Source: a virus
Reading direction: 5' to 3' (one strand)
IMG/VR virus record: IMGVR_UViG_3300016476_001289
DNA: 64,000 nt
This document shows, one piece after another, positions 13,553 to 40,910 of this stretch. Position 1 is the stretch's first letter. Each line of letters opens with the position of its first letter. Under the pieces are notes generated by a model. The model had not been told where the DNA came from. It did not search any database and saw only the letters and a program-made list of their open reading frames with translations. Position numbers and translations under genes: made by a program.

Positions 13553-14521
13553 TTATTTTCCTCTAAGGTGTTTCTTTACAATATGCTCACTACATCTATA
13601 TGTTTTTGCCAAGTCTTTAGTGGTCAATAAACCCTGTTTAAAGGCTTCTATATCACTAGCATTTATTTCAACTTCTCTATTGCCATATTTATACATAGCC
13701 ATTCTCACCGTAGATAAACTACAACCTAGTTCCTGAGCAATATCTTTAAAATCTCTATGTTGGTTTTCTTCACAAAACTCTTTTGTGAGGTTAAAGAGTT
13801 TTTTCTTACTGAGTCCTAATTGTTTAGCTCTTCTTAAAACTGAGATAGGGTGAACATTATGTTTATCTGCAATTTGTTCATAGGTGAGATTAGGGTAATC
13901 CTCAATTAAGACATCATCTTTTAATTTGGTTCTTGGTCCTGCCTTAGTATCTAAACCATAATGAGAAAGTAGGTGGCGAATATGATAAACAGTAGTAGCA
14001 TATTTAGAAGCAATATCACTTATAGACAAGTCTTTATAAAGAGATATGAGTTCATCTTTAGATAGGATAATCTCATAGACTTTTTTTCTATTGCCACGAC
14101 CTCTTAAAGGAATATTAAATCTATATAGCCAATTAAAAACAGCTTGACTTGATACATTATACATTTTAGCAATTTGACTACCTGTGTAGGTAGGATACAG
14201 ACTTTGTAATTCTTCTTTAGTGATTTTTAAGGTGACAACACTTTCAATTTTAGGGATTGGGATATTATGCAATTTACATAATTGATAAGTCCTAGCTAGG
14301 CTATAACCAATAGCGTCAGCTACTTTTTTAATGTCTTGTTTTTCTTGGATAAGTTTTTCAATCTCTTCTTTAGAGTCAATTTTCACCTGATTTAGATTAT
14401 AGTCTTTGAGAAGAGAATAGATTTTACTTGGGCTAACTTTTAAGTTCTTAGCCATTTTCTTAACATCGCCATTAAATCTATTTAATGCTTTAACTACTTT
14501 ATCTTGTGGTATGTATTTCAT
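13553..14521 (-). CDS. tandem multi-HTH DNA-binding protein
   Basis: About 7 repeats of KEEL..LY..L...IA..Y/L.VS...V...L..Y.I. Confidence 0.7.
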   Translation of the reverse strand: MKYIPQDKVVKALNRFNGDVKKMAKNLKVSPSKIYSLLKDYNLNQVKIDSKEEIEKLIQEKQDIKKVADAIGYSLARTYQLCKLHNIPIPKIESVVTLKITKEELQSLYPTYTGSQIAKMYNVSSQAVFNWLYRFNIPLRGRGNRKKVYEIILSKDELISLYKDLSISDIASKYATTVYHIRHLLSHYGLDTKAGPRTKLKDDVLIEDYPNLTYEQIADKHNVHPISVLRRAKQLGLSKKKLFNLTKEFCEENQHRDFKDIAQELGCSLSTVRMAMYKYGNREVEINASDIEAFKQGLLTTKDLAKTYRCSEHIVKKHLRGK

Positions 14522-14605
14522 AATGACATATCTTTCTTTTGTTTGTGTTTCTTTAGCAAGAAATCTAAATAGACTTCTACCGAGCCAACCCTATAAAAAC
14601 CCCCA

Positions 14606-15427
14606 TTAACTAGCTTTCCTAGTCTTTTTCACCTTAACTTCACTCACCTTAACTTCTTCAACCTTAGCAACAGGATTAAAATCTTTTCTCTCAGTTTCAT
14701 CACCTGCCACAACTTCCTCTAACTTAGCAACAGGATTAAATGCTTTTCTTGATACCTTCTCAATCGTCTTAGGTTCTCTTATAGGAATAAAACGATGACG
14801 GCTTAAAATCCCTGCTATCTTGCTCCCCTTAACAGCTATCACTTCTTCATCTTGTTTTAATCTATCACTAGCTGACTTAAAAGCAAAATTAGTAAAGTCA
14901 TTTTTTACTGCTAGTAAAACAATCTCTTTATCATCTTTAAATGAGTGTAGATATTTTAAAACACTACCTTCTTTTTTCACCAACTCAATCGCTATTGATC
15001 TATCTTCTTTAAAAGATTCATGTGCATAGAATATAGCACAGGGATCTTTTTCTATTGCCTTCTTTACGATAGCTTTATCTTGTTTAAGCTTATCATCAAT
15101 AAAGCTTATCAACCACCCATTACAAGTATCTAATAGCTCTAAAATGAATTTCTTATCTGATCTTAATTTAGAATCGGCATGAGATAAAGCATAACAATTT
15201 TGTTTAACTGCTAAGGTTATCACTTCTTTATCTGATTTTAATTTAGGGTTCGCATACTCTAAATTATTGCCATCCTTAGCTACTTGCTTTAAGACAACTT
15301 CTTTATCTGACCAATCAATTTTAGATTGAGTCTTTTCAATCTCTTGCTCAATCTCTTGTTCTTCTACTTGCTCAATAGCAACTTGCTCAACAACTTCTAC
15401 TTGCTCTACTGCTTTTTTCCTTGCCAT
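14606..15427 (-). CDS. DUF4116-repeat protein
   Basis: DKEVVLKQVAKDGNNLEYANPKLKSDKEV-type repeats; SD agagga favours the MARKK start. Confidence 0.7.
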   Translation of the reverse strand: MARKKAVEQVEVVEQVAIEQVEEQEIEQEIEKTQSKIDWSDKEVVLKQVAKDGNNLEYANPKLKSDKEVITLAVKQNCYALSHADSKLRSDKKFILELLDTCNGWLISFIDDKLKQDKAIVKKAIEKDPCAIFYAHESFKEDRSIAIELVKKEGSVLKYLHSFKDDKEIVLLAVKNDFTNFAFKSASDRLKQDEEVIAVKGSKIAGILSRHRFIPIREPKTIEKVSRKAFNPVAKLEEVVAGDETERKDFNPVAKVEEVKVSEVKVKKTRKAS

Positions 15428-15467
15428 TTTGTCCTCTTTCTTGTGTTGTGTTAGTATGTTTGTATCA

Positions 15468-15496
15468 TGTATAACTAATCTATGACTTATTGTCAA
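15468..15496 (-). promoter_or_regulatory. sigma70-like promoter
   Basis: TTGACA-17 nt-TATACA on the minus strand; same downstream leader (tacaaacatactaac) as the 22789 promoter. Confidence 0.55.
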
Positions 15497-15511
15497 GTAG
15501 TTTTTGTAGGA

Positions 15512-15859
15512 TTACGCATTTATTAAAGTCTTATTAGGTGAAGGGTAGTTATCATAATACTCTTTCAATATTAGATACTTCTCTTCATCTATCTGAAGTT
15601 TCTCTAATGCCATCTTCTCTTTTTTCTTTTGGTAATATATTTTTGCTTTCTCATTCCTAGAATCTCTATTCTTTTCTCTATATATCTTACCAGTTTCTAG
15701 TATCTTCTCTTTATTCGCTTCATAATAAATCCTAGCCTTTTCAGCTAAAACTTCTTTATTCTCTTTCCTCCTCTTCCTTTGAGCTTCTGCTCTTTTTTCC
15801 TTATTCTTTTCTGCATACTCTTTCATATATGTAGCTTTGTCTTTGTTCTTATATCCCAT
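15512..15859 (-). CDS. basic low-complexity helical-repeat protein
   Basis: YYEANKEKILE-type repeats. Confidence 0.5.
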   Translation of the reverse strand: MGYKNKDKATYMKEYAEKNKEKRAEAQRKRRKENKEVLAEKARIYYEANKEKILETGKIYREKNRDSRNEKAKIYYQKKKEKMALEKLQIDEEKYLILKEYYDNYPSPNKTLINA

Positions 15860-16142
15860 TAAGTATTTCTCCTTTTTTGTGTCTTTTGTAAGAGTTTTTA
15901 AATAAACCTATTTGTTTATCCGTCAATAGCTCACCTTCAGATACGAGTAAGCTTAAGTTAAATGCTAATTCTCTGACTTTCTCATCACTAGCATTCTCAT
16001 ATAACTCTTTAGCTTGAGATAAAAAATCAAAGTCTTTAAAACAATGTCTTTCTAAATTTCTCATAGGATATTCAAAATGAGTTAAGACAGAATAATAATC
16101 ACATTCTAATTTTTGATACGCTATCATTTTATCACCACCCAT
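15849..16142 (-). CDS. hypothetical protein (LTDKQ motif)
   Basis: SLLVSEGELLTDKQ resembles the motif in 33557, 61939 and 43925. Confidence 0.5.
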   Translation of the reverse strand: MGGDKMIAYQKLECDYYSVLTHFEYPMRNLERHCFKDFDFLSQAKELYENASDEKVRELAFNLSLLVSEGELLTDKQIGLFKNSYKRHKKGEILNGI

Positions 16143-16453
16143 ATATTACTAGGATCAATAGCTTTCCAGTATCTTTGCTTAGGATGTTCTTTATCTGATT
16201 TTTGTCCTATAAACTTCCACCCATTGCTCACCCTACTTCCTAAGGGCGTTCTAGTGAATTGCTCCACTATTTCCCATTCATAATAACTTGTCCCCAAGTC
16301 ATATATAATCTTATTGTCATCACCTGAAAATTGATCTAATCTATATTCAGTCGATAACATACCATAGACAAATTTACATACTTCAATTTGTAAATCGAAG
16401 TTATCAAAATTCTCATATACATTTAATTGTTTTGCTATATCGTTTAATCTCAT
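16124..16453 (-). CDS. hypothetical protein
   Basis: 109-aa ORF in a packed operon. Confidence 0.55.
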   Translation of the reverse strand: MRLNDIAKQLNVYENFDNFDLQIEVCKFVYGMLSTEYRLDQFSGDDNKIIYDLGTSYYEWEIVEQFTRTPLGSRVSNGWKFIGQKSDKEHPKQRYWKAIDPSNIWVVIK

Positions 16454-16458
16454 AATGC

Positions 16459-16899
16459 TTAATCCTTATAAATAATGTTGTGTTTGATTTTACAAAAATC
16501 CTCTAATAACCATCCCTCATTCCTATACTTCCAAGAGATAACTACTTCTCTACCCTGATAGGTGGGGCAAGTAAATTTAACATATCCATCATGCCTTCTT
16601 AAAACAAGATTGTAATCTTTATGCACATTGTAAATTGTAATAGGATTACCTTCATCATCTATAATAGGATTCCCATCAACATCTTCTTCATCTATTTGAA
16701 TTAAATCATCACCTTCTTTTTGAATGATGGCATTTTTAGATTCTACTTTAAAATCTTGATTGGGGAAGTTGTTATTGAATTGAATTAAGAATCTGTTGTT
16801 TTCCATTTGAGTCAATTCAATATCTGCCATTAAGCAATATTCTTCAAAAGCATCTACTCTAATTTGTAGATCAACGCTATTAGTGTGTTTATTAAACAT
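16459..16899 (-). CDS. hypothetical protein
   Basis: 146-aa ORF with internal DGNPI/EGNPI repeat. Confidence 0.55.
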   Translation of the reverse strand: MFNKHTNSVDLQIRVDAFEEYCLMADIELTQMENNRFLIQFNNNFPNQDFKVESKNAIIQKEGDDLIQIDEEDVDGNPIIDDEGNPITIYNVHKDYNLVLRRHDGYVKFTCPTYQGREVVISWKYRNEGWLLEDFCKIKHNIIYKD

Positions 16900-16902
16900 A
16901 GA

Positions 16903-17439
16903 TTAAACTCCTTCTGTGAATTGTTGAATGTTATCAATTTTGTATGTTTTAAGTTTCTCAGTTTCTAGCTTATAATTTTTCTTAATCACATTCTTTAATT
17001 GAACGATGATTCCACTAGTGCTAGGTTTATAAGGTGTGGGGTTCGCATCTTTTACTAGAATCTCTTCACTTACGATTATCCCAGTGATATAATTATCACC
17101 TGTCTTTTTAGATATTTTAATGTAAGGTAAGCTAGGGTGCTTGTCATATTGAGAATCCGTTGAATCAGGATTGCTACCATTTAAAGATTGCTCCATACCT
17201 ACCACTAAACCTTTTCTACCATAGACTTGACCATACATGGCATCATTTAAATCTTGGTCGGTGAAGGTTAATCCCTTAGATTGACAAAGTGCTTTACATT
17301 GATCAAAGGGAATTGATTTTAGTGTATTAATATCATTAGCTAACATTGACTTGTAATCAAAATCTACAATGAGTTTTACATTAACAATGTCTTTGCTGTT
17401 GCCTTGTTTTTGTGTTTGAAAAGATATAAGTTTTAACAT
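16903..17439 (-). CDS. hypothetical protein
   Basis: 178-aa ORF with SD aagga. Confidence 0.6.
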   Translation of the reverse strand: MLKLISFQTQKQGNSKDIVNVKLIVDFDYKSMLANDINTLKSIPFDQCKALCQSKGLTFTDQDLNDAMYGQVYGRKGLVVGMEQSLNGSNPDSTDSQYDKHPSLPYIKISKKTGDNYITGIIVSEEILVKDANPTPYKPSTSGIIVQLKNVIKKNYKLETEKLKTYKIDNIQQFTEGV

Positions 17440-17445
17440 AATTTT

Positions 17446-17760
17446 TTAATCCTTGTTTTGAGAAAACCATAATAATGTGTTGGGTTCATTGTTTCTTAAT
17501 CCAAATCCTAAAAGCTTTTCAGCTTCACTTTTGTTTTTAGTGTTTAGGTATTTAGCAAATTTATCTCTTATTGCTTCCCATTTATAGCAATCACCACCAG
17601 TGAATATCACTGCTAAGGTGTGCTTACATGGAACTTCTCTTTTAATGCACGAAGTTTTGAAGTGGATACAAGAGCATGAAAAATATTGCTGACCATATTC
17701 ATCTAAAAAACCTTTAACGACATAAGTCTTTACAGGTGTGGTGAAAATTAAGTTTTTCAT
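17446..17760 (-). CDS. SWIM zinc-finger protein
   Basis: CSC...CKH pattern (FSCSCIHF...PCKHTLAV). Confidence 0.7.
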   Translation of the reverse strand: MKNLIFTTPVKTYVVKGFLDEYGQQYFSCSCIHFKTSCIKREVPCKHTLAVIFTGGDCYKWEAIRDKFAKYLNTKNKSEAEKLLGFGLRNNEPNTLLWFSQNKD

Positions 17761-18483
17761 TTAAATGCCTTTCTTTGCTAGGAATTTGAAAATTGTTTTA
17801 TGAAGTTTCTTTGCTAGTTTTTCTTTTTCTTTGTTATTTAAAGAAACTGACATACCATTAGCATTACGAATTTCAATCTCAATAACTTCGGTTTCTTCAC
17901 CTTCATCAAGGGGTTCGCAATCATCATCACTAATTAGCAAAGTTTTTAGTGCAGGGTCTATTTTTGCTAGTTCTAATTCATGTGAATAGCTAAGAACATT
18001 TGCATAATTGATAGCTTCACTAAATTGTCTTTCAATTAAATGAATTAGATCTTTGCTATAACCATTAAGAGAAAGTGCGAGTATCCAATTAGATAAAGTG
18101 CCTTCAAGGTAATTGTTAAAAATCATTGTTTCATGTTGAAGTTTTTCTAATGAATCACTTTCTAAAACTCTAAAAATGTGGTGCTTTGCAAATTCACTTT
18201 GTTCAATCGCAAGTTCAGGTGATAGATCTAAAAGACATTGAGCTTTAAAATCTAACCTACTAGCAATAGTAGTAAAATCAAGGGTACGATTTAAATCTAC
18301 AAAAATTTGTGGATGTTCTACACTTGCGATAAGATCAAGTAGTCGTGTTGTCATAGGTTTTTCTTCCTCTTTTTGTGAAAGGTCGATTGTGTTTTGAGCC
18401 ATTTTTGTTGTGAGAATTACCATAGGTTTTTCCTCTTGTGTTGTAGGTTGTGTGTTGTTTTGTGTATAGATCGAGATAATCAT
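17761..18483 (-). CDS. hypothetical protein with three in-frame SD+ATG starts
   Basis: First gene of the left arm of the 18.5-kb element; ATGs at 18483, 18423 and 18354. Confidence 0.6.
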   Translation of the reverse strand: MIISIYTQNNTQPTTQEEKPMVILTTKMAQNTIDLSQKEEEKPMTTRLLDLIASVEHPQIFVDLNRTLDFTTIASRLDFKAQCLLDLSPELAIEQSEFAKHHIFRVLESDSLEKLQHETMIFNNYLEGTLSNWILALSLNGYSKDLIHLIERQFSEAINYANVLSYSHELELAKIDPALKTLLISDDDCEPLDEGEETEVIEIEIRNANGMSVSLNNKEKEKLAKKLHKTIFKFLAKKGI

Positions 18484-18973
18484 AGGTGTTAATCCTTTGT
18501 GTAGTGTTTTGATTCTCTATGCTTAACCTATGTTTTGAATGGTTTTTTTCAACGATTTTAAAAAGTTTAGATATTTTGATAACTTAGAAGTGCGCCCTGC
18601 GGCGCATAATATGTAGAAATCTAGGCTCGGATATTATGTAGAAATCTACTTATATATATATACATATATAGGGGGTCCGCATCTCACCCATTAGTGTATT
18701 CTTAATAGGTAAATATAGACAAATATAAGCAATTTTAATTTTAGAAAGAGGGTAGATGCGGACCCATCACCAGACCCCTATATAGCCCTAGATTTCTACA
18801 TTTTATCTGAGAGTAGATTTCTACATTTTATCGGGTGGGGCGAAAAAATCAAATATTTGAAATATCTAAGCTTTTTTTTTGCGTTGAAAAAACAAGCTTA
18901 AAACATAGGAAAAGCATGAGAATGAAAAATGAAAATTCTCTTAACATAGCAATTTAAATGAAAGGATTATGCT
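18484..18973. promoter_or_regulatory. divergent M1/M2/IHF-box element
   Basis: M1 at 18611 and 18636; M2 at about 18673 and inverted at about 18755; inverted M1 at 18789 and 18814; AAAACATA boxes at 18529 (-) and 18900 (+). Confidence 0.85.
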
Positions 18974-19192
18974 ATGAAATTCAATTTAGAAAAACACATG
19001 AATGAATATGTCGCAAATGATCAAGCTTTTAGAGATAGTGAAAATCTCAAAAGAGCAGGATTTAAGCAAATCAACGCACATCAATTCATCAACGCCCATC
19101 GTTTAATCACAATCAAAGCAAGTATGTATTTACTCAAAGATTTGAAAAACGACTTCACCTTAACCTTAACCTCAATAGAAGGGATCAAATAA
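18974..19192 (+). CDS. hypothetical early-type protein
   Basis: First ORF after the right arm, SD aaagga. Confidence 0.6.
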   Translation: MKFNLEKHMNEYVANDQAFRDSENLKRAGFKQINAHQFINAHRLITIKASMYLLKDLKNDFTLTLTSIEGIK

Positions 19193-19273
19193 TGCTATTT
19201 ACTTCAATACTAGTAATTATTTTCTTTGCTTTCATCATTTAACCTAACCTACTTCCCATAAGGATAAAAACCT

Positions 19274-19657
19274 ATGAAAAACATTTTCAATGCTATTAAG
19301 CACAATTTTTGGTGTGGTGAGATTTACTCCCACGATTTAAACGACAAAGGTAGTCGTGTTGTCTTTTCAAAGTATCAAGATGGTAGAAAAGATGACACTG
19401 ACCATATTGTTATGTGTCTTTATGATGCGGATGTCCTACATGAGATAGCAATTAGCTATGAATCACTCTTAACAAAGAAAAAGAATCGTATAGAAATTAG
19501 TATGTTTGGACATTCAAATATATGTGTAGAAAATAATGGTAATTACACATATTACACTGATGTGAATGAATGTGCAAAAGCAGTGTGCCATCAAATTACA
19601 ACCTTTTTAGTAGATGAATTTCACAACCACCACAACATAAAAGTTGAAAGGATTTAA
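19274..19657 (+). CDS. hypothetical protein
   Basis: SD aagga plus acctATG start context. Confidence 0.6.
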   Translation: MKNIFNAIKHNFWCGEIYSHDLNDKGSRVVFSKYQDGRKDDTDHIVMCLYDADVLHEIAISYESLLTKKKNRIEISMFGHSNICVENNGNYTYYTDVNECAKAVCHQITTFLVDEFHNHHNIKVERI

Positions 19658-19662
19658 AACCT

Positions 19663-19920
19663 ATGAATCAAGTAAATAATTTCGTAAAACAAATTGATGA
19701 GAAAGTATTTAATAAATACAAAGATAATGATGCTGTAAATGTTCATCAACATGATGTTAAATACAATCAAGAAAATGACACCTACACTCTTATATTGTAT
19801 GTGTGGAAAGCTTTAAGAGATGAAGAATTTATTTCTATCGATTTAGGTAAACTTGTCAATGGCAAAATGACTAGAACTTTAGATCAAGTTTTTCAAGATA
19901 TTAAAAAGGCTGTAAAATAA
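19663..19920 (+). CDS. hypothetical protein
   Basis: SD aaagga plus acctATG. Confidence 0.6.
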   Translation: MNQVNNFVKQIDEKVFNKYKDNDAVNVHQHDVKYNQENDTYTLILYVWKALRDEEFISIDLGKLVNGKMTRTLDQVFQDIKKAVK

Positions 19921-20474
19921 TGAATGAAGTGAATGATGTAAAGAAAGAGATTTACTCTCTACTTGATACCTGCACAAATCACATTATTGCTTTTGAAGTA
20001 AGAGATGATTTGAGATATTTATCTCAATATGTTGCGAACCCATCTCTAGATTTTCTCAAAGGTCTAGCAAATAAACTTAAACAACACCAACCTAAAGGAT
20101 TAACACCTATGAATATGGATAACCTAAAAACATTAATTGATAATAATGTTGAATGGCGTTTAGTCGATTCTCATTACACTGATAAGCTTATGTATTTAAT
20201 TCTCTGTGTAAATGTTGAAGGTGAAGACATTGAAGTTAGTTTTACTTTAAAAGTAAAAGACAATGGCATTCAAACTGATGTTGAAATAACAAGATGTGAT
20301 GATGTGATTATTGTTGAAGGCAATGATGTGTTCTCTAAGAACGATGAAGAATTAGAAAATAGCATATATGATTGGCTTAAAACCCAAGTGCAATATGGAA
20401 TTGATGAAGTGATAAGCTATAATGCTTTAGGTGATGAAGAAGAGGATGAGGAAGAAGAAGAGATTGAAGAATAA
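19920..20474 (+). CDS. acidic protein; C-terminal part (from internal ATG 20109) paralogous to 21095..21412
   Basis: VEGNDVFSKNDEELE...WLKTQVQYG shared with 21095. Confidence 0.6.
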   Translation: MNEVNDVKKEIYSLLDTCTNHIIAFEVRDDLRYLSQYVANPSLDFLKGLANKLKQHQPKGLTPMNMDNLKTLIDNNVEWRLVDSHYTDKLMYLILCVNVEGEDIEVSFTLKVKDNGIQTDVEITRCDDVIIVEGNDVFSKNDEELENSIYDWLKTQVQYGIDEVISYNALGDEEEDEEEEEIEE

Positions 20475-20504
20475 TCCACCACTAAAAACTAAAACCACCA
20501 CTAA

Positions 20505-20590
20505 AAACAAAGGATTAACACCTATGAAAAACACTAACAAAGGATTTTCACCTATGAAAGACACTAACAAAGGATTAACACCTATGAAAA
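20505..20590 (+). repeat. 3 x 30-bp tandem repeat of an SD+ATG unit
   Basis: aacaaaggatt(aa/tt)cacctATGaaa with ATGs at 20524, 20554 and 20584. Confidence 0.85.
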
Positions 20591-21066
20591 AATTCACAAC
20601 ACTCAACCACAATATTGAGTTAGAGGTCTCTTATGAATCTCACAAACAACTTACCTTCAAAAAACTTACAAAGTTCTTTAAGGAAATTCAGTTTAACAAC
20701 AAAGTAGTCGTAGATAGTGAAACCACTCTTTTTCACCATTCTATGCCAATCGCTGAAGATGTTTATATCAATGTTCAACTTGATGAAGATTATATCGATT
20801 ATGAAGATCGTGAAAGTGAAAAGAATAAAAATCTTTATGTCATCTATGTTGGCTTCGATAAAATGGAAGTAGGTCCTGCCTTCATCATTCCTAAAGATGA
20901 TGAAAAAGAAGAATTGAAAAGACCCTTAACACTCTTAATTGAATCTCAAGACCCATCTCTTCAAAAGTATGATGATAAATATTCTATCATCACAGACACA
21001 AAAGACTTTTTAGATTTGATCTTAAGTCTAGTAAGAAAACAAATCAAATTGAGCATTAACAAATAA
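20524..21066 (+). CDS. hypothetical protein
   Basis: Real start at one of the three SD+ATG repeats rather than at 20431. Confidence 0.6.
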   Translation: MKNTNKGFSPMKDTNKGLTPMKKFTTLNHNIELEVSYESHKQLTFKKLTKFFKEIQFNNKVVVDSETTLFHHSMPIAEDVYINVQLDEDYIDYEDRESEKNKNLYVIYVGFDKMEVGPAFIIPKDDEKEELKRPLTLLIESQDPSLQKYDDKYSIITDTKDFLDLILSLVRKQIKLSINK

Positions 21067-21094
21067 CAATAAACTAAACAAGGATTAAACACCT

Positions 21095-21412
21095 ATGAAT
21101 TTCAATACACTTAAAAATCTTATTAGTTCTCACACTGAATGGGAATTAGAATCTATTACTAGTAATCAAGATAGTATCCTATTTGGATTAACTCTTCCTA
21201 ATGGTCTTGAAGTATTAGCTGACTTTTCAGTTAGATCTAATGGCATTATCTCAAATATTGAGGTGAGAAAATGGGATGCGGACACTCAAGAAGAAGAGAT
21301 TCTAGTTGAAGGTAATGATGCATTCTCTAAGAATGATGATGATTTAGAAATGACTTTATTCACATGGCTTAAAAAACAAGTCCAATATGGCTTAGAAGAA
21401 ATTCAAGGATAA
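21095..21412 (+). CDS. acidic hypothetical protein, paralog of 20109..20474
   Basis: Shared C-terminal motif, SD aagga. Confidence 0.65.
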   Translation: MNFNTLKNLISSHTEWELESITSNQDSILFGLTLPNGLEVLADFSVRSNGIISNIEVRKWDADTQEEEILVEGNDAFSKNDDDLEMTLFTWLKKQVQYGLEEIQG

Positions 21413-21416
21413 GAAA

Positions 21417-22154
21417 ATGAGTCTTAAAAACGCAATTAATAAATATGGCAAAAAATTTGTTAAGAGATATACCGACCTTCCTAATTTGGAAGATCCTGTT
21501 GACAACCTAGTAGATTCAGTTGAACTTAGTGAATTTATATCTAATTGGAATGAGGAACAAAAAGATAATAAAGACCTTGTAAGAATCATCTTTCTTAACA
21601 CCTATCAAGGTTGGCAATTAAAATATGTCAGTGATAGATTAAAGAATGATAAAGATGTTGTTATTGAAGCTATCCAATCTGATGTAGCTGCGATCCCTCA
21701 TATAGGTGATTCACTAAATGATGATGATGAAGTGATTCAATTAATCACTGATCCTAATCTTTATCTTCATCAAGTATCTGGATTTATTTCTAATCCCGAA
21801 GGCTTTGGTGATCCTTATGAAATGGCAATAAAATATGCACCTAAGGAATTACTAGCATCAAAAGAATTTAGAGACCTAGTTTTTAGATTTGCTAATGGGT
21901 ATAGTAAATTTGTAGGTGAAGATAATGATATGGCTATGAATGAACCTATAAATGAAAGAATATTATCTGAGATTTTTGCTTTCTTTGATCAAGGTGAAGA
22001 TGTTCTACAATATAAACAACTGATTGTTAAAAATATGGAACAACAAGATAAGATGTTTTGTGTGTTTAAGAAAGACACAGAAGGTAATCGATATGGTCAA
22101 TTTTTAGATGGTTCAAAAATTCAATTACACACTATGAGTAAAGAAGGGATTTAG
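21417..22154 (+). CDS. DUF4116-containing protein
   Basis: LKYVSDRLKNDKDVVIEAIQ motif. Confidence 0.6.
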   Translation: MSLKNAINKYGKKFVKRYTDLPNLEDPVDNLVDSVELSEFISNWNEEQKDNKDLVRIIFLNTYQGWQLKYVSDRLKNDKDVVIEAIQSDVAAIPHIGDSLNDDDEVIQLITDPNLYLHQVSGFISNPEGFGDPYEMAIKYAPKELLASKEFRDLVFRFANGYSKFVGEDNDMAMNEPINERILSEIFAFFDQGEDVLQYKQLIVKNMEQQDKMFCVFKKDTEGNRYGQFLDGSKIQLHTMSKEGI

Positions 22155-22238
22155 TTCTTCTTTATTTATAGTGTGTTGTTTTTTTGTTTAGGGGTGTAGA
22201 AATCTAGGTATCATTATAAAATAGGGGGTAGTAGGAAA

Positions 22239-22805
22239 ATGTATAAACAATCTAGATTAGATTTACTTAAAACTTTATATAACTTAAAAAAGCCTATACA
22301 AGTTATATCTGATAATTTATTTTATGGTTATACTTATGAACAAGCTATCTTATATATAGGGAAGGACAGGGCTAAAGAGATATATAAAGTTCAACAGAGT
22401 AGAATGAGGGCATATAAGAAAGCTGATTTAAATAGAATAGGATTACACCCTGTAGAGAGTAAGAAATCGGGTGATAAGTTATATCTCTTGGTGAATGACA
22501 TGGGATATTATATATTTGATGTAGATTTAAAAGTTTTAGGGACTGATCCCCATTATGTAAAACCTAGAATAATAGGTGAAGGTGAATGGGATAGGATATG
22601 GGAAGTCATCATAAGGAATGAAGCTAGGGTGAATGAGTTTACTGATATACCTATAAAGGTAAGTTTTACTAATGAATATGGTATATATAAGGAAGGTATA
22701 TTATATGAGTTTATAGAAGTTATGGGCTGTATTGCTTACGGTTCTATTCTATCTGATGAAATAACTTATAATATCCCTATCTTTTTTCTTGACATATCCA
22801 CATAG
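22239..22805 (+). CDS. hypothetical protein
   Basis: 188-aa ORF with SD agga. Confidence 0.5.
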   Translation: MYKQSRLDLLKTLYNLKKPIQVISDNLFYGYTYEQAILYIGKDRAKEIYKVQQSRMRAYKKADLNRIGLHPVESKKSGDKLYLLVNDMGYYIFDVDLKVLGTDPHYVKPRIIGEGEWDRIWEVIIRNEARVNEFTDIPIKVSFTNEYGIYKEGILYEFIEVMGCIAYGSILSDEITYNIPIFFLDIST

Positions 22806-22817
22806 AGTGTTTATAAT
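22789..22817 (+). promoter_or_regulatory. consensus sigma70 promoter
   Basis: TTGACA (22789-22794), 17 nt, TATAAT (22812-22817). Confidence 0.8.
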
Positions 22818-31867: not shown

Positions 31868-32104
31868 TTATTTCTTTTCATTTTGAATCTTTCCTATGAG
31901 TTTTGTCATTGTGTTTAAAATGTTCTCATTTGTCATCTCACAAGTCTTAGACTCGTAATGATCTTTATCATAAACTGTGACTTTTGATTTTGTTCTAAAG
32001 TGATGTATGATCACGAATAGTGACCCCGCATACACAATATCGCCATCTTCATTTATCTCAAAATTGAGATTTGTTAGTCTTTTTAAATATCCTACAAGTT
32101 CCAT
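31868..32104 (-). CDS. hypothetical protein
   Basis: 78 aa, SD aaagg. Confidence 0.55.
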   Translation of the reverse strand: MELVGYLKRLTNLNFEINEDGDIVYAGSLFVIIHHFRTKSKVTVYDKDHYESKTCEMTNENILNTMTKLIGKIQNEKK

Positions 32105-32231
32105 TTTTTACTGCCTTTCTTTATGATTGTTAGGTTTTTGTTTGTGTTGACCATTGCTTTAGCTTGGTGAAGCGTTAATTCACTAGCTATAGATTTTTTA
32201 CCCTTGCTTGTTTTATCAATCACAAAATACA

Positions 32232-32360
32232 TTATTCGTCTTCTTCCTCAAGGTAGGATTCAATGATAAATTCTTCAAATTTATCACATGAATCATCAGA
32301 TGATTCTAAACATTCTTCATCGACATATGATAAAATCATAAATTCTTCAAAGTCATTCAT
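32232..32360 (-). CDS. 42-aa very acidic peptide (not in the ORF track)
   Basis: MNDFEEFMILSYVDEECLESSDDSCDKFEEFIIESYLEEEDE; SD aaagga; first ORF after a promoter arm. Confidence 0.6.
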   Translation of the reverse strand: MNDFEEFMILSYVDEECLESSDDSCDKFEEFIIESYLEEEDE

Positions 32361-32696
32361 AGCTTAATCCTTTCATTGATTTATTGTTTTGCTATTTCCT
32401 ATACTCATTATATGTTTTAGGTGGAGTTTTTAAATCAGGTGAAAATGTTTATATATTTCAATAACTTACACGATTCGCCGCGCCACATAATATGTAGAAA
32501 TCTAAGGTGATATAAAAGGCTATTATGTAGAAATCTTGCATAGGGTCCGCATACTTTCACCCCACTTCCACCCCCACCCCTAGATTTCTACATATTAAAA
32601 GGCTAGATTTCTTCACAGGGGGTCCGCATACTTTTAGATTTCTTTCTCCTACCACAAAAAAAAACAACTCGATAAAGAGAAGCTTCTCTTTATCGA
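32361..32696. promoter_or_regulatory. M1/M2 junction: leftward promoter arm plus terminator of the upstream cassette
   Basis: AAAACATA (-) at 32411, IHF-like box at 32456, M1 at 32492 and 32525, M2 at 32543 and 32620, inverted M1 at 32581, hairpin cgataaagagaagcttctctttatcg. Confidence 0.8.
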
Positions 32697-33059
32697 TTAG
32701 GTTCTTTCAATAAATTTAGCAGTGAAAATCTCATTTTCAATTTTAACTTTATAATAATTTGAATATTGAAAATCATGATAATACTTTTTGCCGTCAATTA
32801 CTTCCCAGGTTTTATCGATAAAAAGTATAAATTCAACATTGATTAAATGGGTATTAAGATAAACTTCAGCATTTAAATCATAGTCTTTTATTCTAAAAGT
32901 AATATCTTGACATTTTTCAATCTCTTCATGAAATTTATTTTCTAATGAATGATGAATCTCTTGATAAACACTTTCAATCATAAAATCATCATGATTTTTT
33001 TCAATCATTCTCTTTATAAAGCCTCGCATACCTATTTCGTATCTTAACTCTCTAATCAT
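32697..33059 (-). CDS. hypothetical cassette protein
   Basis: SD aaagga favours ATG 33059 (MIRELR) over the ORF-track start at 33077. Confidence 0.6.
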   Translation of the reverse strand: MIRELRYEIGMRGFIKRMIEKNHDDFMIESVYQEIHHSLENKFHEEIEKCQDITFRIKDYDLNAEVYLNTHLINVEFILFIDKTWEVIDGKKYYHDFQYSNYYKVKIENEIFTAKFIERT

Positions 33060-33077
33060 AGCTTTAAATCCTTTCAT

Positions 33078-33556
33078 TGATTTATTTGTTAATTGCTATA
33101 CTCATTATATGTTTTAGGTGAGATTTTTAATATAGGTGAAAATGTTTATATATATCAATAACTTACACGATTCCCACATCCTGATAATATGTAGAAATCT
33201 AAAAGGATAAAATGTAGAAATCTAGGTGAAACCCCTATAATGTCCGCATACTTATCACCCCACCCTAGATTTCTACATATAAAGCCATAAGGATATTTTA
33301 TTCACCCAAATACATGGTCCGCATACTTTCACCATACTCGCCCTAGATTTCTACATTTTAGGGTATTTCTAATATTCACCTAGACCCCTTAGATTTCTAC
33401 ATATTATCAGTATATGTAAATCTCGTAAGTGATTAAAATGTATAGCTTTTTTTACCTACATTAAAATTATCACCTAAAACATATATTGAGTATAACTTAA
33501 CAACATAGATGATTGTTAAGTCTTTTAACATAGCTTAACATAAAGGATATAATGCT
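33078..33556. promoter_or_regulatory. divergent M1/M2/IHF-box element
   Basis: Perfect WATCAANNNNTTR at 33153-33165; M1 at 33189 and 33212; M2 at 33242 and 33316; inverted M1 at 33266, 33344 and 33390. Confidence 0.85.
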
Positions 33557-34057
33557 ATGACAAGTTTCAATAAAACTCAATTTCTTTCTCAATTTGCTTC
33601 TTTTACTCCTAAAAATGAATGGGAAGAAAAATTTAGTAAATCTCTTCACCGACAAGTAGAAAAGTATGGTAAAGAGTTATCTGAAAAACAAATTGAATGT
33701 TGGACAAAATTAATTGCTCCTAAGACTCAAGTTAAGGTAGAATCTTTATCTGAAACTGCTTTAAGTGAATTAACAAAAGCAAATAATGTTCTTGTTTATG
33801 CTACTGAAGTTAAAGATATTGAATTTGCTAAAAGCTTAAAATCTCAAATTTTAGAAGGTAAAGAACTTAGCTCAAAACAAGCTTATTTCTTAGGATTAAT
33901 TGAGAAAAGAGTAAGCCCAAAGGTTGAAGCTCCTAAGGTTGAAACTGCTAAAGCTCCTAAGACTGCTAAAGCTAAGGTTGAAGCTCCTAAGGTTGAAGCT
34001 CCTAAGACTGCTAAAACTGCTAAAGCTAAAAAAGAAGTAAAAACATTACCATTCTAA
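33557..34057 (+). CDS. cassette protein with two LS.KQ motifs and a Lys/Ala/Pro-rich tail; paralog of 61939..62394
   Basis: Near-identical N-terminal about 125 aa; APKVE/TAK repeats. Confidence 0.75.
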   Translation: MTSFNKTQFLSQFASFTPKNEWEEKFSKSLHRQVEKYGKELSEKQIECWTKLIAPKTQVKVESLSETALSELTKANNVLVYATEVKDIEFAKSLKSQILEGKELSSKQAYFLGLIEKRVSPKVEAPKVETAKAPKTAKAKVEAPKVEAPKTAKTAKAKKEVKTLPF

Positions 34058-34066
34058 TTAGCTTGT

Positions 34067-34226
34067 CTTAACTAGCTTATTGACTTAATTGTCTTTAAGC
34101 TAGTTAAGGTTTTTTTTTGTTTAGGAAGCAAGAAGTCTATCCTACCCCCTAGCAGATAAAGAAATCTAGCCTTTAATATGTAGAAATCTAGGGTGGTAAA
34201 TAAATTGATATTTTTGTATGCGACCC
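34067..34226 (+). terminator. cassette end: terminator, M1 pair and inverted M2
   Basis: 13-bp stem at 34067-34108, T-run, gaaatctag twice, gtatgcgacccc. Confidence 0.75.
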
Positions 34227-34799
34227 CTATAGACATACTTTATAGGTGGGTTTAGGTAATAGCTTAATAATATCTATCACATCTAAATTATCTATAATCC
34301 TAACTCTACCATCCTGAACACTCCCATCCTTAAATGAAGGGATTAAATCACCCATAGTCTTAGGTTGATAGACATCAAAAATATCTTTAGGGATTTTAAA
34401 TTCAGTAGGAACACTTGTCTTTTCAGCTAAGATATAATCTGGATCTAAATAAGCTAATACTTCACCTTTAACAGCAAAGATAAAAGGATCTGTTAAATTG
34501 GATCTATCTTTTAAACCTAAGCTATCAGATAAAACTTTAACCACATGGGTGATAACATTAGATTTTCCTCTTAATCTTTGGTGAAGTATAATATATTCAC
34601 CTTGAGTTTCTTTAAACTTATTAGGACAATGTGAATAAATATTACCTGTAGGTAAATTGACACCTAAAGAGATAGGTGTCAATAAAGAACTTTTTGTTTT
34701 AGGTTTAGAATGTATAGAACATAAACCATCTTTTTCTTGGTGAAGATATCCAAACTTATTAGGATTCTCCTGATGATTAATTAACTTATGATAGATCAT
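34227..34799 (-). CDS. hypothetical protein
   Basis: 190 aa, SD aaggag. Confidence 0.6.
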   Translation of the reverse strand: MIYHKLINHQENPNKFGYLHQEKDGLCSIHSKPKTKSSLLTPISLGVNLPTGNIYSHCPNKFKETQGEYIILHQRLRGKSNVITHVVKVLSDSLGLKDRSNLTDPFIFAVKGEVLAYLDPDYILAEKTSVPTEFKIPKDIFDVYQPKTMGDLIPSFKDGSVQDGRVRIIDNLDVIDIIKLLPKPTYKVCL

Positions 34800-34935
34800 A
34801 TAAACTCCTTATAGGTGAATAAAGATAAACCATATTATATTATTCACTTATAAGGCAGTATCTTCACCTTAAGATTATCACCTATAAGATTCACCTATAG
34901 GATTAGTCTATAATAATATAATATTATAGTCAGTA

Positions 34936-35036
34936 CATAATACTATTATAGACTATATAATATACTAAGAAGAATATAATACTATTATAGACTATAATAT
35001 ACTTAAAAGACATAATACTATTATAGTCTATAATAC
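34936..35036 (+). repeat. three imperfect AT-rich direct repeats
   Basis: ataatactattatag(a/t)cta at about 34937, 34976 and 35012. Confidence 0.7.
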
Positions 35037-35117
35037 ACCTAAGAGAAACATAATATCTTATATACTGTTAGTCCTATATTTCCTATAATATAGTCCTATA
35101 AGGAGAAAGGACTCATT

Positions 35118-36248
35118 ATGTTAGATAAAGAAAAATTAGAAGAACTATTTAATCAATTCACCATTAAAGATATTAGTGGAATACTTAATACTAGTCCAGC
35201 TAATGTTAGAAAACATATTAAAATCTATGATCTAAAAAAACCTATCAGAGATAAAAACAAAAAAGCAATAGATCCTAATCTTATTCATTCTCTCTTTAAT
35301 GAAGGTAAATCTATAGTCCTTATAGCTAAAGAACTTAATGCTAGTTATGACTGTATAGCTAACTTCCTTAAACCATCTAAAATTAAAAACTCTAAATACT
35401 CCACCTTAAAAGTTTTATATGCCACCCAAAAGAAGTCTATTCCTGAAATTTCTAAAATTCTAAATATATCACCCACCACCATCTGGAGATGGATAAAGAG
35501 ATATAATTTACAAAGACACTCACCTATAACTAAACCCACCCTACAAGACCTGTATCTAAATAAAAAACTACCTATTTACCAAATAGCTAAAAAACTTAAT
35601 ATCCCTATTGATGATGTCTCCATAGCTATTAAAAACTATGACCTGAAAAACACCCACCCTCAAATCTCTAAAGAACAAATATTAAACTTTTACCCCGCCT
35701 TGTCTCTTAAAGAAACTTCTTCTATTTTAAATATCCCTATAACACACTTTATGAAACTCTTATCCTCCTATAATATACCTATAAGAAAAAAAGGTAAAAC
35801 ACCTATAACCATATCCCAAGAGGTCTTATCTGATTTATACATCACCCAAAATAAATCAATAGATGCCATCTCTACTATACTTAAAGTAAGCGATAAAGTT
35901 ATTAGACAGAGAATTAAACTCTATGGTCTTATTAAACACTCTAAAGCAACTAAAAATAAAGTCTTATCTATCTCTAAAAGAGAACTTGAAAACCTTTACT
36001 CTTTTGAAGGTATCAAAGCTGTCTGTTCTAAATTTAATGTCACTCTTAAAGCTGTTAAAGATGCCCTAGATAAATATGGTATTCTCCACAATAGTAATAA
36101 ACTCCCTAAAGAAAGAATTATAGACCTATATGTAAATACCTATGCTGTATATAAAGCACATATAGCTATTGATGAAATAGCTAAAGAACTTAATCTATCA
36201 AGAAGAGAAATTACAGAGTTTATAAGATATAATAAAATTAAAAGATAG
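35118..36248 (+). CDS. tandem multi-HTH DNA-binding protein
   Basis: About 8 HTH-like repeats (e.g. SIPEISKILNISPTTIWRWIKRYNL). Confidence 0.7.
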   Translation: MLDKEKLEELFNQFTIKDISGILNTSPANVRKHIKIYDLKKPIRDKNKKAIDPNLIHSLFNEGKSIVLIAKELNASYDCIANFLKPSKIKNSKYSTLKVLYATQKKSIPEISKILNISPTTIWRWIKRYNLQRHSPITKPTLQDLYLNKKLPIYQIAKKLNIPIDDVSIAIKNYDLKNTHPQISKEQILNFYPALSLKETSSILNIPITHFMKLLSSYNIPIRKKGKTPITISQEVLSDLYITQNKSIDAISTILKVSDKVIRQRIKLYGLIKHSKATKNKVLSISKRELENLYSFEGIKAVCSKFNVTLKAVKDALDKYGILHNSNKLPKERIIDLYVNTYAVYKAHIAIDEIAKELNLSRREITEFIRYNKIKR

Positions 36249-36288
36249 GTATTATATATAGCCCACTCATATTAGAATAAGGATATAT

Positions 36289-36540
36289 ATGCTATATACT
36301 GAACCTGAATTAGAAGATATTGATATTAATGAAGATGAAGATATAATTTTCATCTTACATAAAGGTGGAGACTTTTCTATTATTCCACCTGAAGATGAAG
36401 ATAAAGTTTCCCATATACAAGTATTACTACTAGAACAAATATTAGTATCTGTAAGACCTTCTATATTTTTATTGATCGCCCTTAAAACAGAAATTGCTTT
36501 TGTAAAGTTATGGAACTGGATTGTAAATAGAGATTCTTGA
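36289..36540 (+). CDS. family C small protein
   Basis: P(E/K)D...PS.F/W L...L..E..F motif shared with 52803 and the C-terminus of 53350. Confidence 0.5.
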   Translation: MLYTEPELEDIDINEDEDIIFILHKGGDFSIIPPEDEDKVSHIQVLLLEQILVSVRPSIFLLIALKTEIAFVKLWNWIVNRDS

Positions 36541-36601
36541 CATTTACATTTATGGTATTATATATAACCAAACTTCACCCTATATATAGGAGATTATATA
36601 A

Positions 36602-36862
36602 ATGAGCATTATTAAGCCCCTTAGAGATTCCGTTCTCATTAAAAAAGACACACCTGATGTAAAAACCGCTAGTGGTTTATATATCCCTGCTACAAGTAAT
36701 ACTAATCAAACCACAGGCACTGTTGTTGCCGTTGGTAAAGATGTTAAAGAAATTAGTGTTAATGACACCGTTGTGTTCCTATCCCCTGGTATTGAACTCA
36801 CCCAAGATAATCAAAAAGTTTATCTTATGAGTGAAACAGATATTCTCGCTATACTTGGATAA
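36602..36862 (+). CDS. groES: co-chaperonin GroES
   Basis: IKPLRDSVLI, KTASGLYIP mobile loop, GTVVAVG, MSETDILAI. Confidence 0.9.
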   Translation: MSIIKPLRDSVLIKKDTPDVKTASGLYIPATSNTNQTTGTVVAVGKDVKEISVNDTVVFLSPGIELTQDNQKVYLMSETDILAILG

Positions 36863-36864
36863 CC

Positions 36865-38701
<1,837 letters not shown>

Positions 38702-38705
38702 AATA

Positions 38706-39254
38706 CTAAATAGTGGTTTGAGATAATGTATATTTAACACCGAAGTGTAAAGATTTACCACCTGGTCTAGACCCTTTCTTTAAGGTGCTTTTTTTAGCCC
38801 ATAAGAATTGATCTGTTTCACCATCATTAGAAACCAAGTTCCATTTTTCTTTTTGATCTAATGTAATATCAGCTATAAAAGTAATATATCTAAAACCACA
38901 ATCTTCATATTCAGTTTTCTTAATGATTTGAGCATTATTGAATTTAGGTGGTAAAGAACCACATTCTTCTTTAACTTCTTTTCTAGCTGTTCTTAAAAAT
39001 ATAGTGTCATTAGTAATAGGATCATCTATAGGTGTATCATTCCAATCTTCACCACCTAACCCACCACCTGCAATCCCCCATGTGTTAGGTTGATCTACCC
39101 AGGATGCTCTTAAAAGAAGTAATACGGTATCGTCTTCAGAACAGATAAACATCATACCTGCTCCTCCCTTACCCCAATATTGTTTTTTCTTACATTTAGC
39201 AAATAAAGACTTTGCTATCCTATTTAAGATCTTAGATTTCTTATTGTCTAACAT
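38706..39254 (-). CDS. NUDIX hydrolase
   Basis: LLLLRA...WGIAGG...ARKEVKEECG Nudix box with an insertion. Confidence 0.75.
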   Translation of the reverse strand: MLDNKKSKILNRIAKSLFAKCKKKQYWGKGGAGMMFICSEDDTVLLLLRASWVDQPNTWGIAGGGLGGEDWNDTPIDDPITNDTIFLRTARKEVKEECGSLPPKFNNAQIIKKTEYEDCGFRYITFIADITLDQKEKWNLVSNDGETDQFLWAKKSTLKKGSRPGGKSLHFGVKYTLSQTTI

Positions 39255-39299
39255 ATTAATATCTCTCCCTTATGTTTCTTTACACATAAGAAAGAGATA

Positions 39300-40214
39300 T
39301 TATAAAGATATTAATTGCTCTGCTAAACTTAATACATCCTTAGACCAGTATTGTGAAGGTCTAGGTTTAGATGTAGTACCTACAATAGCTTCACAAGTAG
39401 TAATACTATCTATCCATTGTTTAGGTAGAGATTTAAGACCATAAACAGCACCAAATAAAGCACCTAAGATCGCACTATGGGTATCCGCATCACCCCCTTT
39501 TCTTATAGTTATATCTAGTGCCTTAACTATATCTCCTGTATGATATAGGTGATACATAGCATTCTGAATACCTACAAGACAAGTGCCTTTAAACATATTA
39601 GTAGGTGCTTTAGTTTTAGCTTGTATTAAAGTTTCTCTTACCTTAGGTATAGTCGCCCAATCTACCATTTGTTGAAATAAATCTTTAGGTGCTATATCTG
39701 ATCTAATAGCAAGACTAATAGCCCTAGCATATATACTATTTACTTCAAAGACAATATCATTTTCATGAGTACATTCAGCATCAGCAATAGCTAATGCACC
39801 TACTATATCTAAGTCTTTATTTACACCATATATACCTATAGGGGCAATTCTCATAAGAGCACCATTAGATATAGATTCAGGGTTATACAAGTCATGCCAT
39901 AAAGCATTACTTGTAGTAGTGCCTATATCAAAAGGCTTACTCTCAGACCAATCTTTATAAGCATTTAAGACATTAGTGTAATTAAACTCTTTATCTCTAA
40001 TAAGAGTCCTAGCAAGAGTGATAGCAAGTTCACCATCATCAGTAGGTTGACCTGCTCTTAAATCAAAAGTGCCACCTCTATTTATTAGATCTTTAAACCC
40101 TTTAGGGTAAAGAGATTTTACAATATCAGGTGATTGAAATTCAACTAATGCACCTAAGTTATCACCTGCAATTAAACCTGCAAAGCAACCTTGAGCTTTT
40201 TCTAATACATTCAT
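39300..40214 (-). CDS. ADP-ribosylglycohydrolase (ARH/DraG family)
   Basis: GDNLGALVEF, PTDDGE, SNGALMRIAP, GGDADT motifs. Confidence 0.9.
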   Translation of the reverse strand: MNVLEKAQGCFAGLIAGDNLGALVEFQSPDIVKSLYPKGFKDLINRGGTFDLRAGQPTDDGELAITLARTLIRDKEFNYTNVLNAYKDWSESKPFDIGTTTSNALWHDLYNPESISNGALMRIAPIGIYGVNKDLDIVGALAIADAECTHENDIVFEVNSIYARAISLAIRSDIAPKDLFQQMVDWATIPKVRETLIQAKTKAPTNMFKGTCLVGIQNAMYHLYHTGDIVKALDITIRKGGDADTHSAILGALFGAVYGLKSLPKQWIDSITTCEAIVGTTSKPRPSQYWSKDVLSLAEQLISL

Positions 40215-40910
40215 TTATTTGTCCTTTCCTTTTACATATTTTTTAGCGATTCCATATTGTATCCTTAAATAAGATACAAGAGATTGACTGACCCCTAGAA
40301 TTTGAGCTATTTCACTTTGTTTTAAGTGGGAGAGTTTTTCTAGTTCTTCTTTAGAAGGTCTTTTGAGACCTAGATCAAGTTCCCTTCTCCATTTAACGAC
40401 AGTCCCTGCACTTACCTTATATTTAGTAGCAGTTTCATTTACACTTAAGTTTTTAAGATCTTCTCTAGGTGGTAAAGGTATCTTCCTAACTTTTCCTTTA
40501 GTGGGAAGGAAAGTAATCCCATATTCTTTTCCCCATAGAGAAACAGATTGTTTAGTAACACCATAAAATTCTGCTATTTGTTTTTGAGATAGGTGAGTTA
40601 ATTTTTCTAGTTCTTCTTTACTAGGTTTAATTATATCTTCTTTCTCTTTACGAGCAAATTTTAAATCATAAACCCTTGCCCATAGTCTTACACAAGATAT
40701 TTTAACTTGGTATTTCTCAGCTATTTGATATACATTTAAGTGGGAGAGTTTTTCTAGTTCTTCTTTACTAGGTCTTTTCTTAGAAAAAGAAATACCATAG
40801 GATTTAGAAACAGAATAAATCGTTGCTAAAGAGACACCTAGTTTTTCAGCTACCTGTTTGTAAGTTAGGTGGGTAAGTTCTTCTAATACTTCTCTAGTTA
40901 AAAAAGTCAT
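40215..40910 (-). CDS. tandem multi-HTH DNA-binding protein
   Basis: Five repeats of PSKEELEKL.HL...QIA...GVS. Confidence 0.75.
   Translation of the reverse strand: MTFLTREVLEELTHLTYKQVAEKLGVSLATIYSVSKSYGISFSKKRPSKEELEKLSHLNVYQIAEKYQVKISCVRLWARVYDLKFARKEKEDIIKPSKEELEKLTHLSQKQIAEFYGVTKQSVSLWGKEYGITFLPTKGKVRKIPLPPREDLKNLSVNETATKYKVSAGTVVKWRRELDLGLKRPSKEELEKLSHLKQSEIAQILGVSQSLVSYLRIQYGIAKKYVKGKDK

Follow-up and report, generated by a model that had tools for sequence, protein, structure and literature searches.

Tandem helix-turn-helix arrays in three proteins of a metagenomic phage as candidate readers of long DNA sites

The three genes and their repeat units

A viral DNA stretch of 64,000 nucleotides, IMG/VR record IMGVR_UViG_3300016476_001289 (analyzed over its full length and referred to below as the window), carries between positions 13,553 and 40,910 three genes, here called A, B, and C, each of which encodes a protein composed from end to end of tandem three-helix units of the helix-turn-helix (HTH) type. 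Their coordinates, strands, and unit boundaries, which are based on the open reading frame (ORF) and on a profile of the units, are as follows.

Gene A, 13553..14521, minus strand: 322 aa, 7 tandem three-helix HTH units (residues 1-48, 49-99, 100-152, 153-199, 200-244, 245-285, 286-322)
Gene B, 35118..36248, plus strand: 376 aa, 8 tandem HTH units (residues 1-50, 51-94, 95-138, 139-182, 183-231, 232-284, 285-328, 329-376)
Gene C, 40215..40910, minus strand: 231 aa, 5 tandem HTH units (residues 1-45, 46-95, 96-146, 147-184, 185-231)

The 20 units of the three proteins, segmented by hand and aligned with MAFFT, fall on a single pattern, L/I-S/T-K-E-E-L..LY followed by ..eIAk.lgVS..tV...lk.YgI, which comprises three helices: a short one on S/T-K-E-E-L..LY, another on ..eIAk.lg, and, after a VS turn, a last one that closes with YG-I/L. 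A profile built from these 20 units detects 7 units in A, 8 in B, and 5 in C, with no further match below E 0.1 among 420 six-frame stretches of the window and with the best of 300 shuffled versions reaching E 0.12. Since such a profile is circular, profiles were also built from the units of single proteins: the A-only profile detects C (E 2.8e-25) and B (2e-16), and A is in turn detected by the B-only (1.1e-17) and C-only (2.1e-19) profiles. The B and C profiles do not detect each other at E<0.01; the two proteins are connected by BLASTP at 6e-7.

The units are 37-53 aa long (mean 46), and the longest stretch outside the unit envelopes amounts to 9, 7, and 8 aa for A, B, and C, as measured on the proteins P0039, P0041, and P0001, which are 99-100% identical to them. 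The linkers between units comprise 6-18 residues and are mostly K/R-rich, and the proteins as a whole are basic, with a pI of 9.55-9.88 (9.55 for A) and a net charge of +18 to +34. The mean unit-to-unit identity inside one protein is 19% in A, 26% in B, and 37% in C, with no alternating (ABAB) pattern. The first-pass annotation of this DNA had described three proteins made wholly of 5-8 tandem HTH-like repeats and devoid of a catalytic domain, a description borne out by the ORFs, by the unit counts of the profile, and by the mere 7-9 aa left outside the unit envelopes; the repeats themselves stand as described there, and the unit size of 40-48 aa given for them has to be widened to the range above.

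Fold and HTH assignment

AlphaFold2 models computed from ortholog alignments contain 15 helices (5 × 3) for C (pLDDT 77.5, pTM 0.29) and 24 helices (8 × 3) for B (pLDDT 75.5, pTM 0.31). With a pTM of about 0.3 and low-confidence linkers, both models have the appearance of beads on a string, without solenoid packing. Single units superpose in VIA-align on solved HTH domains of the classical DNA-binding kind with a root-mean-square deviation (rmsd) of 1.1-2.2 Å over 35-41 residues (Z 4.5-6.0), the best match being the complex of a mycobacteriophage immunity repressor with DNA (7tz1; Z 6.0, rmsd 1.8 Å over 41 residues), with further matches to GcrA, the Mos1 and Tc3 transposases, Fis, NtrC, and Tn3 resolvase. 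A Foldseek search of the whole models against the PDB gave nothing at E<=1e-3, as is to be expected for a flexible chain, and the ESM Atlas returned only generic HTH clusters with scores of 0.90 or below. In the PDB sequence search, 7r6r matches unit 3 of C at E 6e-4, and B has no match.

The Pfam families HTH_23 (PF13384) and HTH_28 (PF13518) are matched by the whole proteins A, B, and C with 58.9, 71.8, and 59.3 bits, values that are sums over the units, the gathering cutoffs being 24.6-25 (for A, 58.9 bits against the HTH_23 cutoff of 24.6). When the units are taken singly, only unit 3 of B exceeds a cutoff (39.6 bits). A sigma-70 factor was considered as another identity for these proteins and rejected: among the Pfam matches listed, the sigma-70 models are Sigma70_r4 and r4_2 only, as generic HTH families, with none for region 2; the units fill the whole length; and TIGR02937 reaches 24-30 bits, below its cutoff of 42.9.

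The first-pass reading of the units as HTH-like and of the proteins as modular DNA readers is supported at the level of homology and fold inference, by the Pfam matches, the AlphaFold2 models, the likeness to 7tz1, the basic linkers, and the kinship with homing endonucleases described below. From these we infer that A, B, and C bind DNA.

Relatives and domain partners

Collinear orthologs of A, B, and C are all present in related metagenomic phages. C has about ten of them (44-69% identity, 226-244 aa), all with 5 units, and B has two at 53% identity, one of which is without unit 7. No relatives of A are found by word search; an exhaustive HMMER search recovers five collinear orthologs at 32-41% identity and also 397 proteins at E<=1e-3. 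Among the best 150 of these matches, 24 are pure arrays of at least 4 units, 95 combine at least 4 units with an extra region of at least 60 aa, and 31 have fewer than 4 detectable units; the largest number in one relative is 12. The partner domains found on relatives with such HTH units include a helicase (P0050), HNH_3 (P0040), HNH, GIY-YIG, and a Vsr-like cluster, and many of the extra regions match no Pfam family.

Outside this group, tblastn against GenBank phages yielded nothing for C at 1e-5, one weak match for A, annotated as TPR, and six weak matches only for B. The latter fall on Vibrio-phage genes annotated as "Hef-like homing endonuclease" and on an unannotated stretch of a Lak megaphage; in the Vibrio-phage proteins, the units are N-terminal and a weak Vsr match is present. 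PHROGs labeled HNH or homing endonuclease match the arrays at 1e-17 to 1e-21, and a BFVD structure search returned 22 viral models at E<=1e-3, mostly uncharacterized phage proteins together with a few endonucleases. The unit of the arrays is kin to the DNA-binding arms of homing endonucleases. No orthologs were found in IMG/VR: scans with single proteins yielded a single weak locus, for C, and nothing for A or B, and of the alignment scans that with A3 returned one single-unit match and that with A2 none. The 185,579 species genomes searched contain neither orthologs nor a target-like array, only two single-unit matches, both in archaeal metagenome-assembled genomes (MAGs). No paper describing phage tandem-HTH arrays was found in the open-access collection searched.

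Conservation, synteny, and selection

The related phage L002 shares with the window the gene order C-ARH-NUDIX-GroEL-GroES-orf-B, where ARH stands for ADP-ribosylglycohydrolase. The ARH gene comes next after C in four of the seven relatives with downstream sequence, the other three (L003-L005) having a different neighbor. With starts called by a first-start rule, the genes of the pair either abut or share 7-11 nt, both in the window, where the stop codon of C abuts the ARH gene start, and in the four relatives, which suggests translational coupling. The adjacent C and ARH genes lie at the following positions.

Window, 39300-40910: C and ARH gene pair
L002, 3858-5494: C and ARH gene pair
L006, 7610-9192: C and ARH gene pair
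L008, 694-2317: C and ARH gene pair
L009, 9130-10565: C and ARH gene pair

When the window is compared with L002, B has a dN/dS of 0.33 and C one of 0.46, as against values of 0.05-0.19 in seven neighboring genes; B and C are under purifying selection and yet evolve fast. A, B, and C are, in short, real genes, of which B and C are retained in place and selected for their protein sequence. Within the C family, orthologous units of the same index are 53% identical, as against 37-38% for other index pairs, and across orthologs the recognition helices divide into a conserved set (units 3 and 5, with 0.85 and 0.72) and a variable one (units 1, 2, and 4, with 0.48-0.56). The similarity of same-index units, together with the low identity within each protein, indicates that the arrays are old and fixed, each position having an identity of its own.

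Divergence from L002 is uneven along these 7 kb (34227-40910), dS varying about 17-fold, from 0.08 to 1.48, and protein identity ranging from 98.7% for GroEL to about 53-54% for B, so that the region looks mosaic relative to L002.

Genomic setting

The window is AT-rich (GC 28-36%), tightly filled with short ORFs, and about 90% coding. Besides A, B, and C, 15 of its 93 ORFs have Pfam matches, among them a SNF2-type helicase, three topoisomerase-IB-like proteins, GroES/GroEL, NUDIX, ARH, Macro, and three DUF4116 proteins. B is the first gene of a row running into GroES/GroEL. Scans for sigma-70-type promoters and terminators around A and B gave site counts not above those of shuffled sequences. 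In the 318-bp spacer upstream of B lies the following feature.

Candidate repeat block, 34864..35066, no strand assigned: a 13-bp unit repeated three times, then a 36-39-bp tandem unit repeated three times

Each of the 36-39-bp units contains the palindrome TATTATAG-N-CTATAATA, with TATAAT on both strands; the pattern has three matches in the window against 0.33 expected and is found nowhere else in it. L002 lacks the block and has a corresponding spacer of only about 70 bp. The block might act locally as an array of operators or promoters.

The surroundings of A include one of the three DUF4116-repeat proteins (14606-15496, 21417-22154, and 53350-53928), whose gene lies directly upstream of it. 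Two small genes on its 3' side (12704-13551; 148 and 141 aa) are distant paralogs of each other, with 23% identity over 131 residues (E 2e-4), and have no Pfam or PHROG match.

The M1 and M2 repeats

The dominant repeat of the window, TAGATTTCTACA, is present in 34 exact copies. M1 (CCTAGATTTCTACATWWTAT, with a conserved block of about 21 bp, CCTAGATTTCTACATAtTAtc) is strictly intergenic, none of its 34 exact copies lying inside an ORF; 27 of them aim at the next gene start, 113-389 bp off, and the other seven at a gene end, so M1 is not solely a promoter-side element. The copies aimed at gene 3' ends lie at 22195, 32581, 34179, 56686, 57520, 63354, and 63931, and several of them are paired with the variant TAGATTTCTTTATCTGCTAGGGGG 22 bp away. 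M1 occurs mostly in pairs 22-36 bp apart rather than in arrays of 5-8, a pair spanning about 45 bp; one such pair lies at 18789-18835. The pairs point away from a central inverted repeat of GGGTCCGCAT, taken as M2 (for example at 18665-18770). The core of M1, TAGATTTC, is kept in all related phages (L002, L003, L004, L006, and L009), and its 3' half differs by lineage, being TACA in the window, L006, and L009, TACTTA in L002, and ATATG in L003 and L004. In the last two, a copy of M1 stands directly downstream of the C ortholog.

With regard to the three array genes, the nearest exact M1 copies are 928 bp from B, 4,091 bp from A, and 6,025 bp from C, and a degenerate M1-like element is located just upstream of A (14560-14581). 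The placement of A and B at island edges in the first-pass annotation is upheld for B, which is separated by one gene from the last exact M1 of the 32.4-34.2 kb cluster; A lies instead at the far end of a leftward gene row that begins at the M1 cluster at 18.6 kb.

Interpretation and alternative explanations

The explanation favored here, to which roughly an even chance is given on the strength of homology and structure prediction, is that A, B, and C are DNA-binding phage proteins of a poly-HTH type, separate from one another and each standing alone, that would read long composite sites and would likely serve as regulators or architectural factors. Each of them would be a chain of independent three-helix HTH domains (5, 7, or 8) on flexible, mostly basic linkers of 6-18 residues. 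The shortness of these linkers would keep neighboring units no more than about one to two helical turns apart, which would result in a continuous cover of about 40-80 bp per molecule, an estimate scaled from Cbp1 with its three units per ~25-bp repeat. Since the units differ within each protein and keep their identity across orthologs, the target would be a long asymmetric composite site and not one repeat copied several times over; for C, the conserved anchors would be units 3 and 5, and the lineage-specific readers units 1, 2, and 4. The most likely role would be in the transcription of phage DNA, as regulatory or architectural factors, with B heading the GroES/GroEL row and C presumably co-transcribed with the ARH and NUDIX genes.

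It has to be noted that several observations weigh against this explanation. Every single-unit structure match has Z<8, a range that shows perhaps only a common helical arrangement, and at E<=1e-4 only two of the 20 single units match any Pfam family, the remaining 18 matching none, so that the HTH assignment depends on summed weak matches together with the fold. The dN/dS of B and C is 2-9 times that of their neighbors, which fits conflict or relaxed constraint equally well as it fits a regulator. In addition, as the promoter scan performed no better than on shuffled sequences, statements on gene rows and operons are drawn from spacing alone.

The first-pass annotation had proposed the arrays as candidates for binding the spaced M1/M2 repeats. 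Recognition of M1 and M2 on the flanks of small gene cassettes by one or more of the three proteins, which would be akin to that of CRISPR repeats by Cbp1 or of the many stoperators by the cluster A mycobacteriophage repressor, now appears rather unlikely. Some protein must read M1, given that it is confined to the intergenic tenth or so of the DNA and mostly faces gene starts; the span of an M1 pair would be within reach of five units, unit 3 of C and the M1 core are both conserved across every lineage seen, the degenerate element stands upstream of A, and HTH proteins acting on many dispersed or spaced sites have precedents in two reports (PMC10883916; PMC9283540). However, no exact M1 lies closer to the three genes than the distances given above, the M1 copies are identical whereas the units of one protein are only 19-37% identical to each other and show no ABAB pattern, and the M1 spacing of 22-89 bp is too wide for linkers of 6-18 aa to bridge from unit to unit. 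The M1 core is also unchanged although B is just 53% identical to its L002 counterpart and the relatives of A are at 32-41%. Moreover, the recognition helices of C do not co-vary with the M1 variants among six lineages: the C ortholog of L009, a phage with the same M1 12-mer as the window, has 45% helix-3 identity, and those of L003 and L004, with a different M1 3' half, have 49-51%, which means that helix 3 tracks overall divergence and not the M1 variant. Lying upstream of gene starts, M1 could just as well be a promoter element for RNA polymerase. A similarly low likelihood, again rather unlikely, attaches to the proposal that A, B, and C act on host DNA, as take-over or counter-defence factors on long host sites such as promoters, CRISPR repeats, or defence loci. 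The raised dN/dS relative to the seven neighboring genes would fit such a role, as would the company of C, which travels with ARH and NUDIX genes and has a Macro gene nearby, all three being enzyme families often linked to host-phage conflict, and the nearest curated family, Cbp1, reads CRISPR repeats; the species genomes, on the other hand, hold no C-family ortholog or target-like array beyond the two archaeal single-unit matches, and the PADLOC matches are to generic small HTH models.

It is likewise unlikely that the three proteins are nuclease-less descendants of free-standing homing endonucleases, either decaying or retained as site blockers against related endonucleases in co-infection. 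Such a descent would account for the unit type shared with the DNA-binding part of HNH, HNH_3, GIY-YIG, and Vsr-like proteins, for the restriction of the GenBank phage matches of B to "Hef-like" genes and the Lak megaphage stretch, for the PHROG matches and the endonucleases among the BFVD models, and for the fast evolution; it sits poorly with units that tile the entire proteins and leave no nuclease remnant, with the presence of B and C at the same place in relatives instead of as presence/absence insertions, and with a unit number and order kept across orthologs down to 32-45% identity. Decay in particular is spoken against by a dN/dS below 1. Most improbable of all is that A, B, and C bind RNA or act as protein scaffolds, after the fashion of the tandem winged-helix domains by which SelB binds an mRNA hairpin: the top row of the whole-model Foldseek search is indeed a C-terminal fragment of SelB, a match that is not significant (E 0.039), and the matches with better support, in sequence as well as for single units, all fall on HTH domains that bind DNA. 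A more specific version of DNA addressing, in which C would form a putative pair with the adjoining ARH and direct it to sites of de-ADP-ribosylation on DNA or DNA-bound proteins so as to counter ADP-ribosylating host defences, and in which, more broadly, phage poly-HTH arrays would be modular address tags with a conserved anchor and fast-changing reader units, draws on the abutting or overlapping genes in the window and four relatives and is regarded as improbable.

Returning to the stand-alone readers favored above, tandem HTH arrays are a simple way to obtain long DNA addresses from small modules. One phage region here holds three distinct families of 5-8 modules, with relatives in the hundreds that reach up to 12 detectable units and that in many cases also carry a nuclease or helicase part. 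Provided that every unit recognizes a subsite of its own, they would amount to a natural, evolvable DNA-reading system, and maps of their binding would provide a first handle on gene regulation in huge phages, nearly all of whose genes have no known function.

Comparison with known systems

The phage homing endonucleases of the Hef-like/Vsr-like, HNH_3, and GIY-YIG types, such as gp151 of Vibrio phage VAP7, share the HTH unit type with A, B, and C, often with 2-4 units in tandem, a kinship that is seen by the unit profile and by tblastn and in matches to PHROGs 8446, 7545, and 59. A, B, and C differ from them in having more units and no nuclease domain, no HNH, GIY-YIG, Vsr/PD-(D/E)XK, or LAGLIDADG domain being present in them and only HTH-type families standing among the Pfam matches listed (the best 25 of 48-70 families per protein). 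NUMOD1, a homing-endonuclease HTH family, is neither among those best 25 families nor among the single-unit matches at E<=1e-4. B and C are, furthermore, syntenic rather than inserted, and instead of a sporadic presence or absence they are found at the same positions in L002; no corresponding locus was found for A.

A regulator-like relationship is indicated by PHROG 323, "transcriptional regulator, D5-like" (after the phage T5 protein D5), which matches A at 2.2e-17, B at 9.1e-16, and C at 3.5e-11, with the matches covering only part of the profile and PHROGs having no curated cutoff. A Vibrio phage "D5 protein" is also among the BFVD structure matches (E 5e-3), and no usable paper on the architecture of T5 D5 was found in the open-access collection searched. 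The best solved-structure match for a single unit of the A-C type is the immunity repressor of cluster A mycobacteriophages (7R6R/7TZ1), which is described as a monomer that uses linked domains on an asymmetric site, at many sites across the phage genome (PMC9283540). That repressor has one HTH and a different second domain and no HTH array, so the likeness is at the generic HTH level (Z<8).

Among eukaryotic proteins, Myb with three repeats and the paired/Pax proteins with two place beads-on-a-string HTH repeats on adjacent subsites, as is proposed for A, B, and C, and Pipsqueak (Psq) has four tandem HTH repeats; one relative of the arrays, P0054, matches HTH_psq. These readers belong to another domain of life and have fewer units, and no specific sequence kinship to A, B, and C is shown. 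To our knowledge, Cbp1, with its three modules, is the only well-studied prokaryotic tandem HTH array. A and B both have NF040595 (HTH_Cbp1) as their best NCBIfam match, and in B, units 2-4 align with its whole three-repeat profile (positions 8-132 of 135). The scores of 57.5 bits for B and 32.2 bits for A are far under the cutoff of 140, which makes them no members of the Cbp1 family, and C is without a match; the structure 2LVS comes only at rank 25 in Foldseek (E 0.77).

In architecture, Cbp1 and Cbp2 (NF040595; 2LVS) nevertheless come close to A, B, and C, as all are stand-alone proteins that consist of nothing but three-helix HTH domains, arranged in tandem, not interacting with one another, and joined by basic flexible linkers. 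The reports on Cbp1 and Cbp2 describe non-interacting HTH domains with a basic linker on a 25-bp repeat, one such repeat of about 25 bp being spanned by the three HTH domains of Cbp1 (PMC3597662; PMC10883916), and the Cbp2 paper likens tandem HTH domains to readers of the Myb type and ascribes to both Cbp1 and Myb a pattern of repeats more conserved between orthologs than within the protein (PMC3597662), which is the pattern that C displays as well. The differences lie in number, target, and host: there are 3 units in Cbp1, 2 in Cbp2, and 5-8 in A, B, and C; both of the former read a regularly spaced DNA repeat (CRISPR), and no CRISPR array is seen in the window; and Cbp1 and Cbp2 are crenarchaeal chromosomal proteins, whereas A, B, and C are proteins of a phage.

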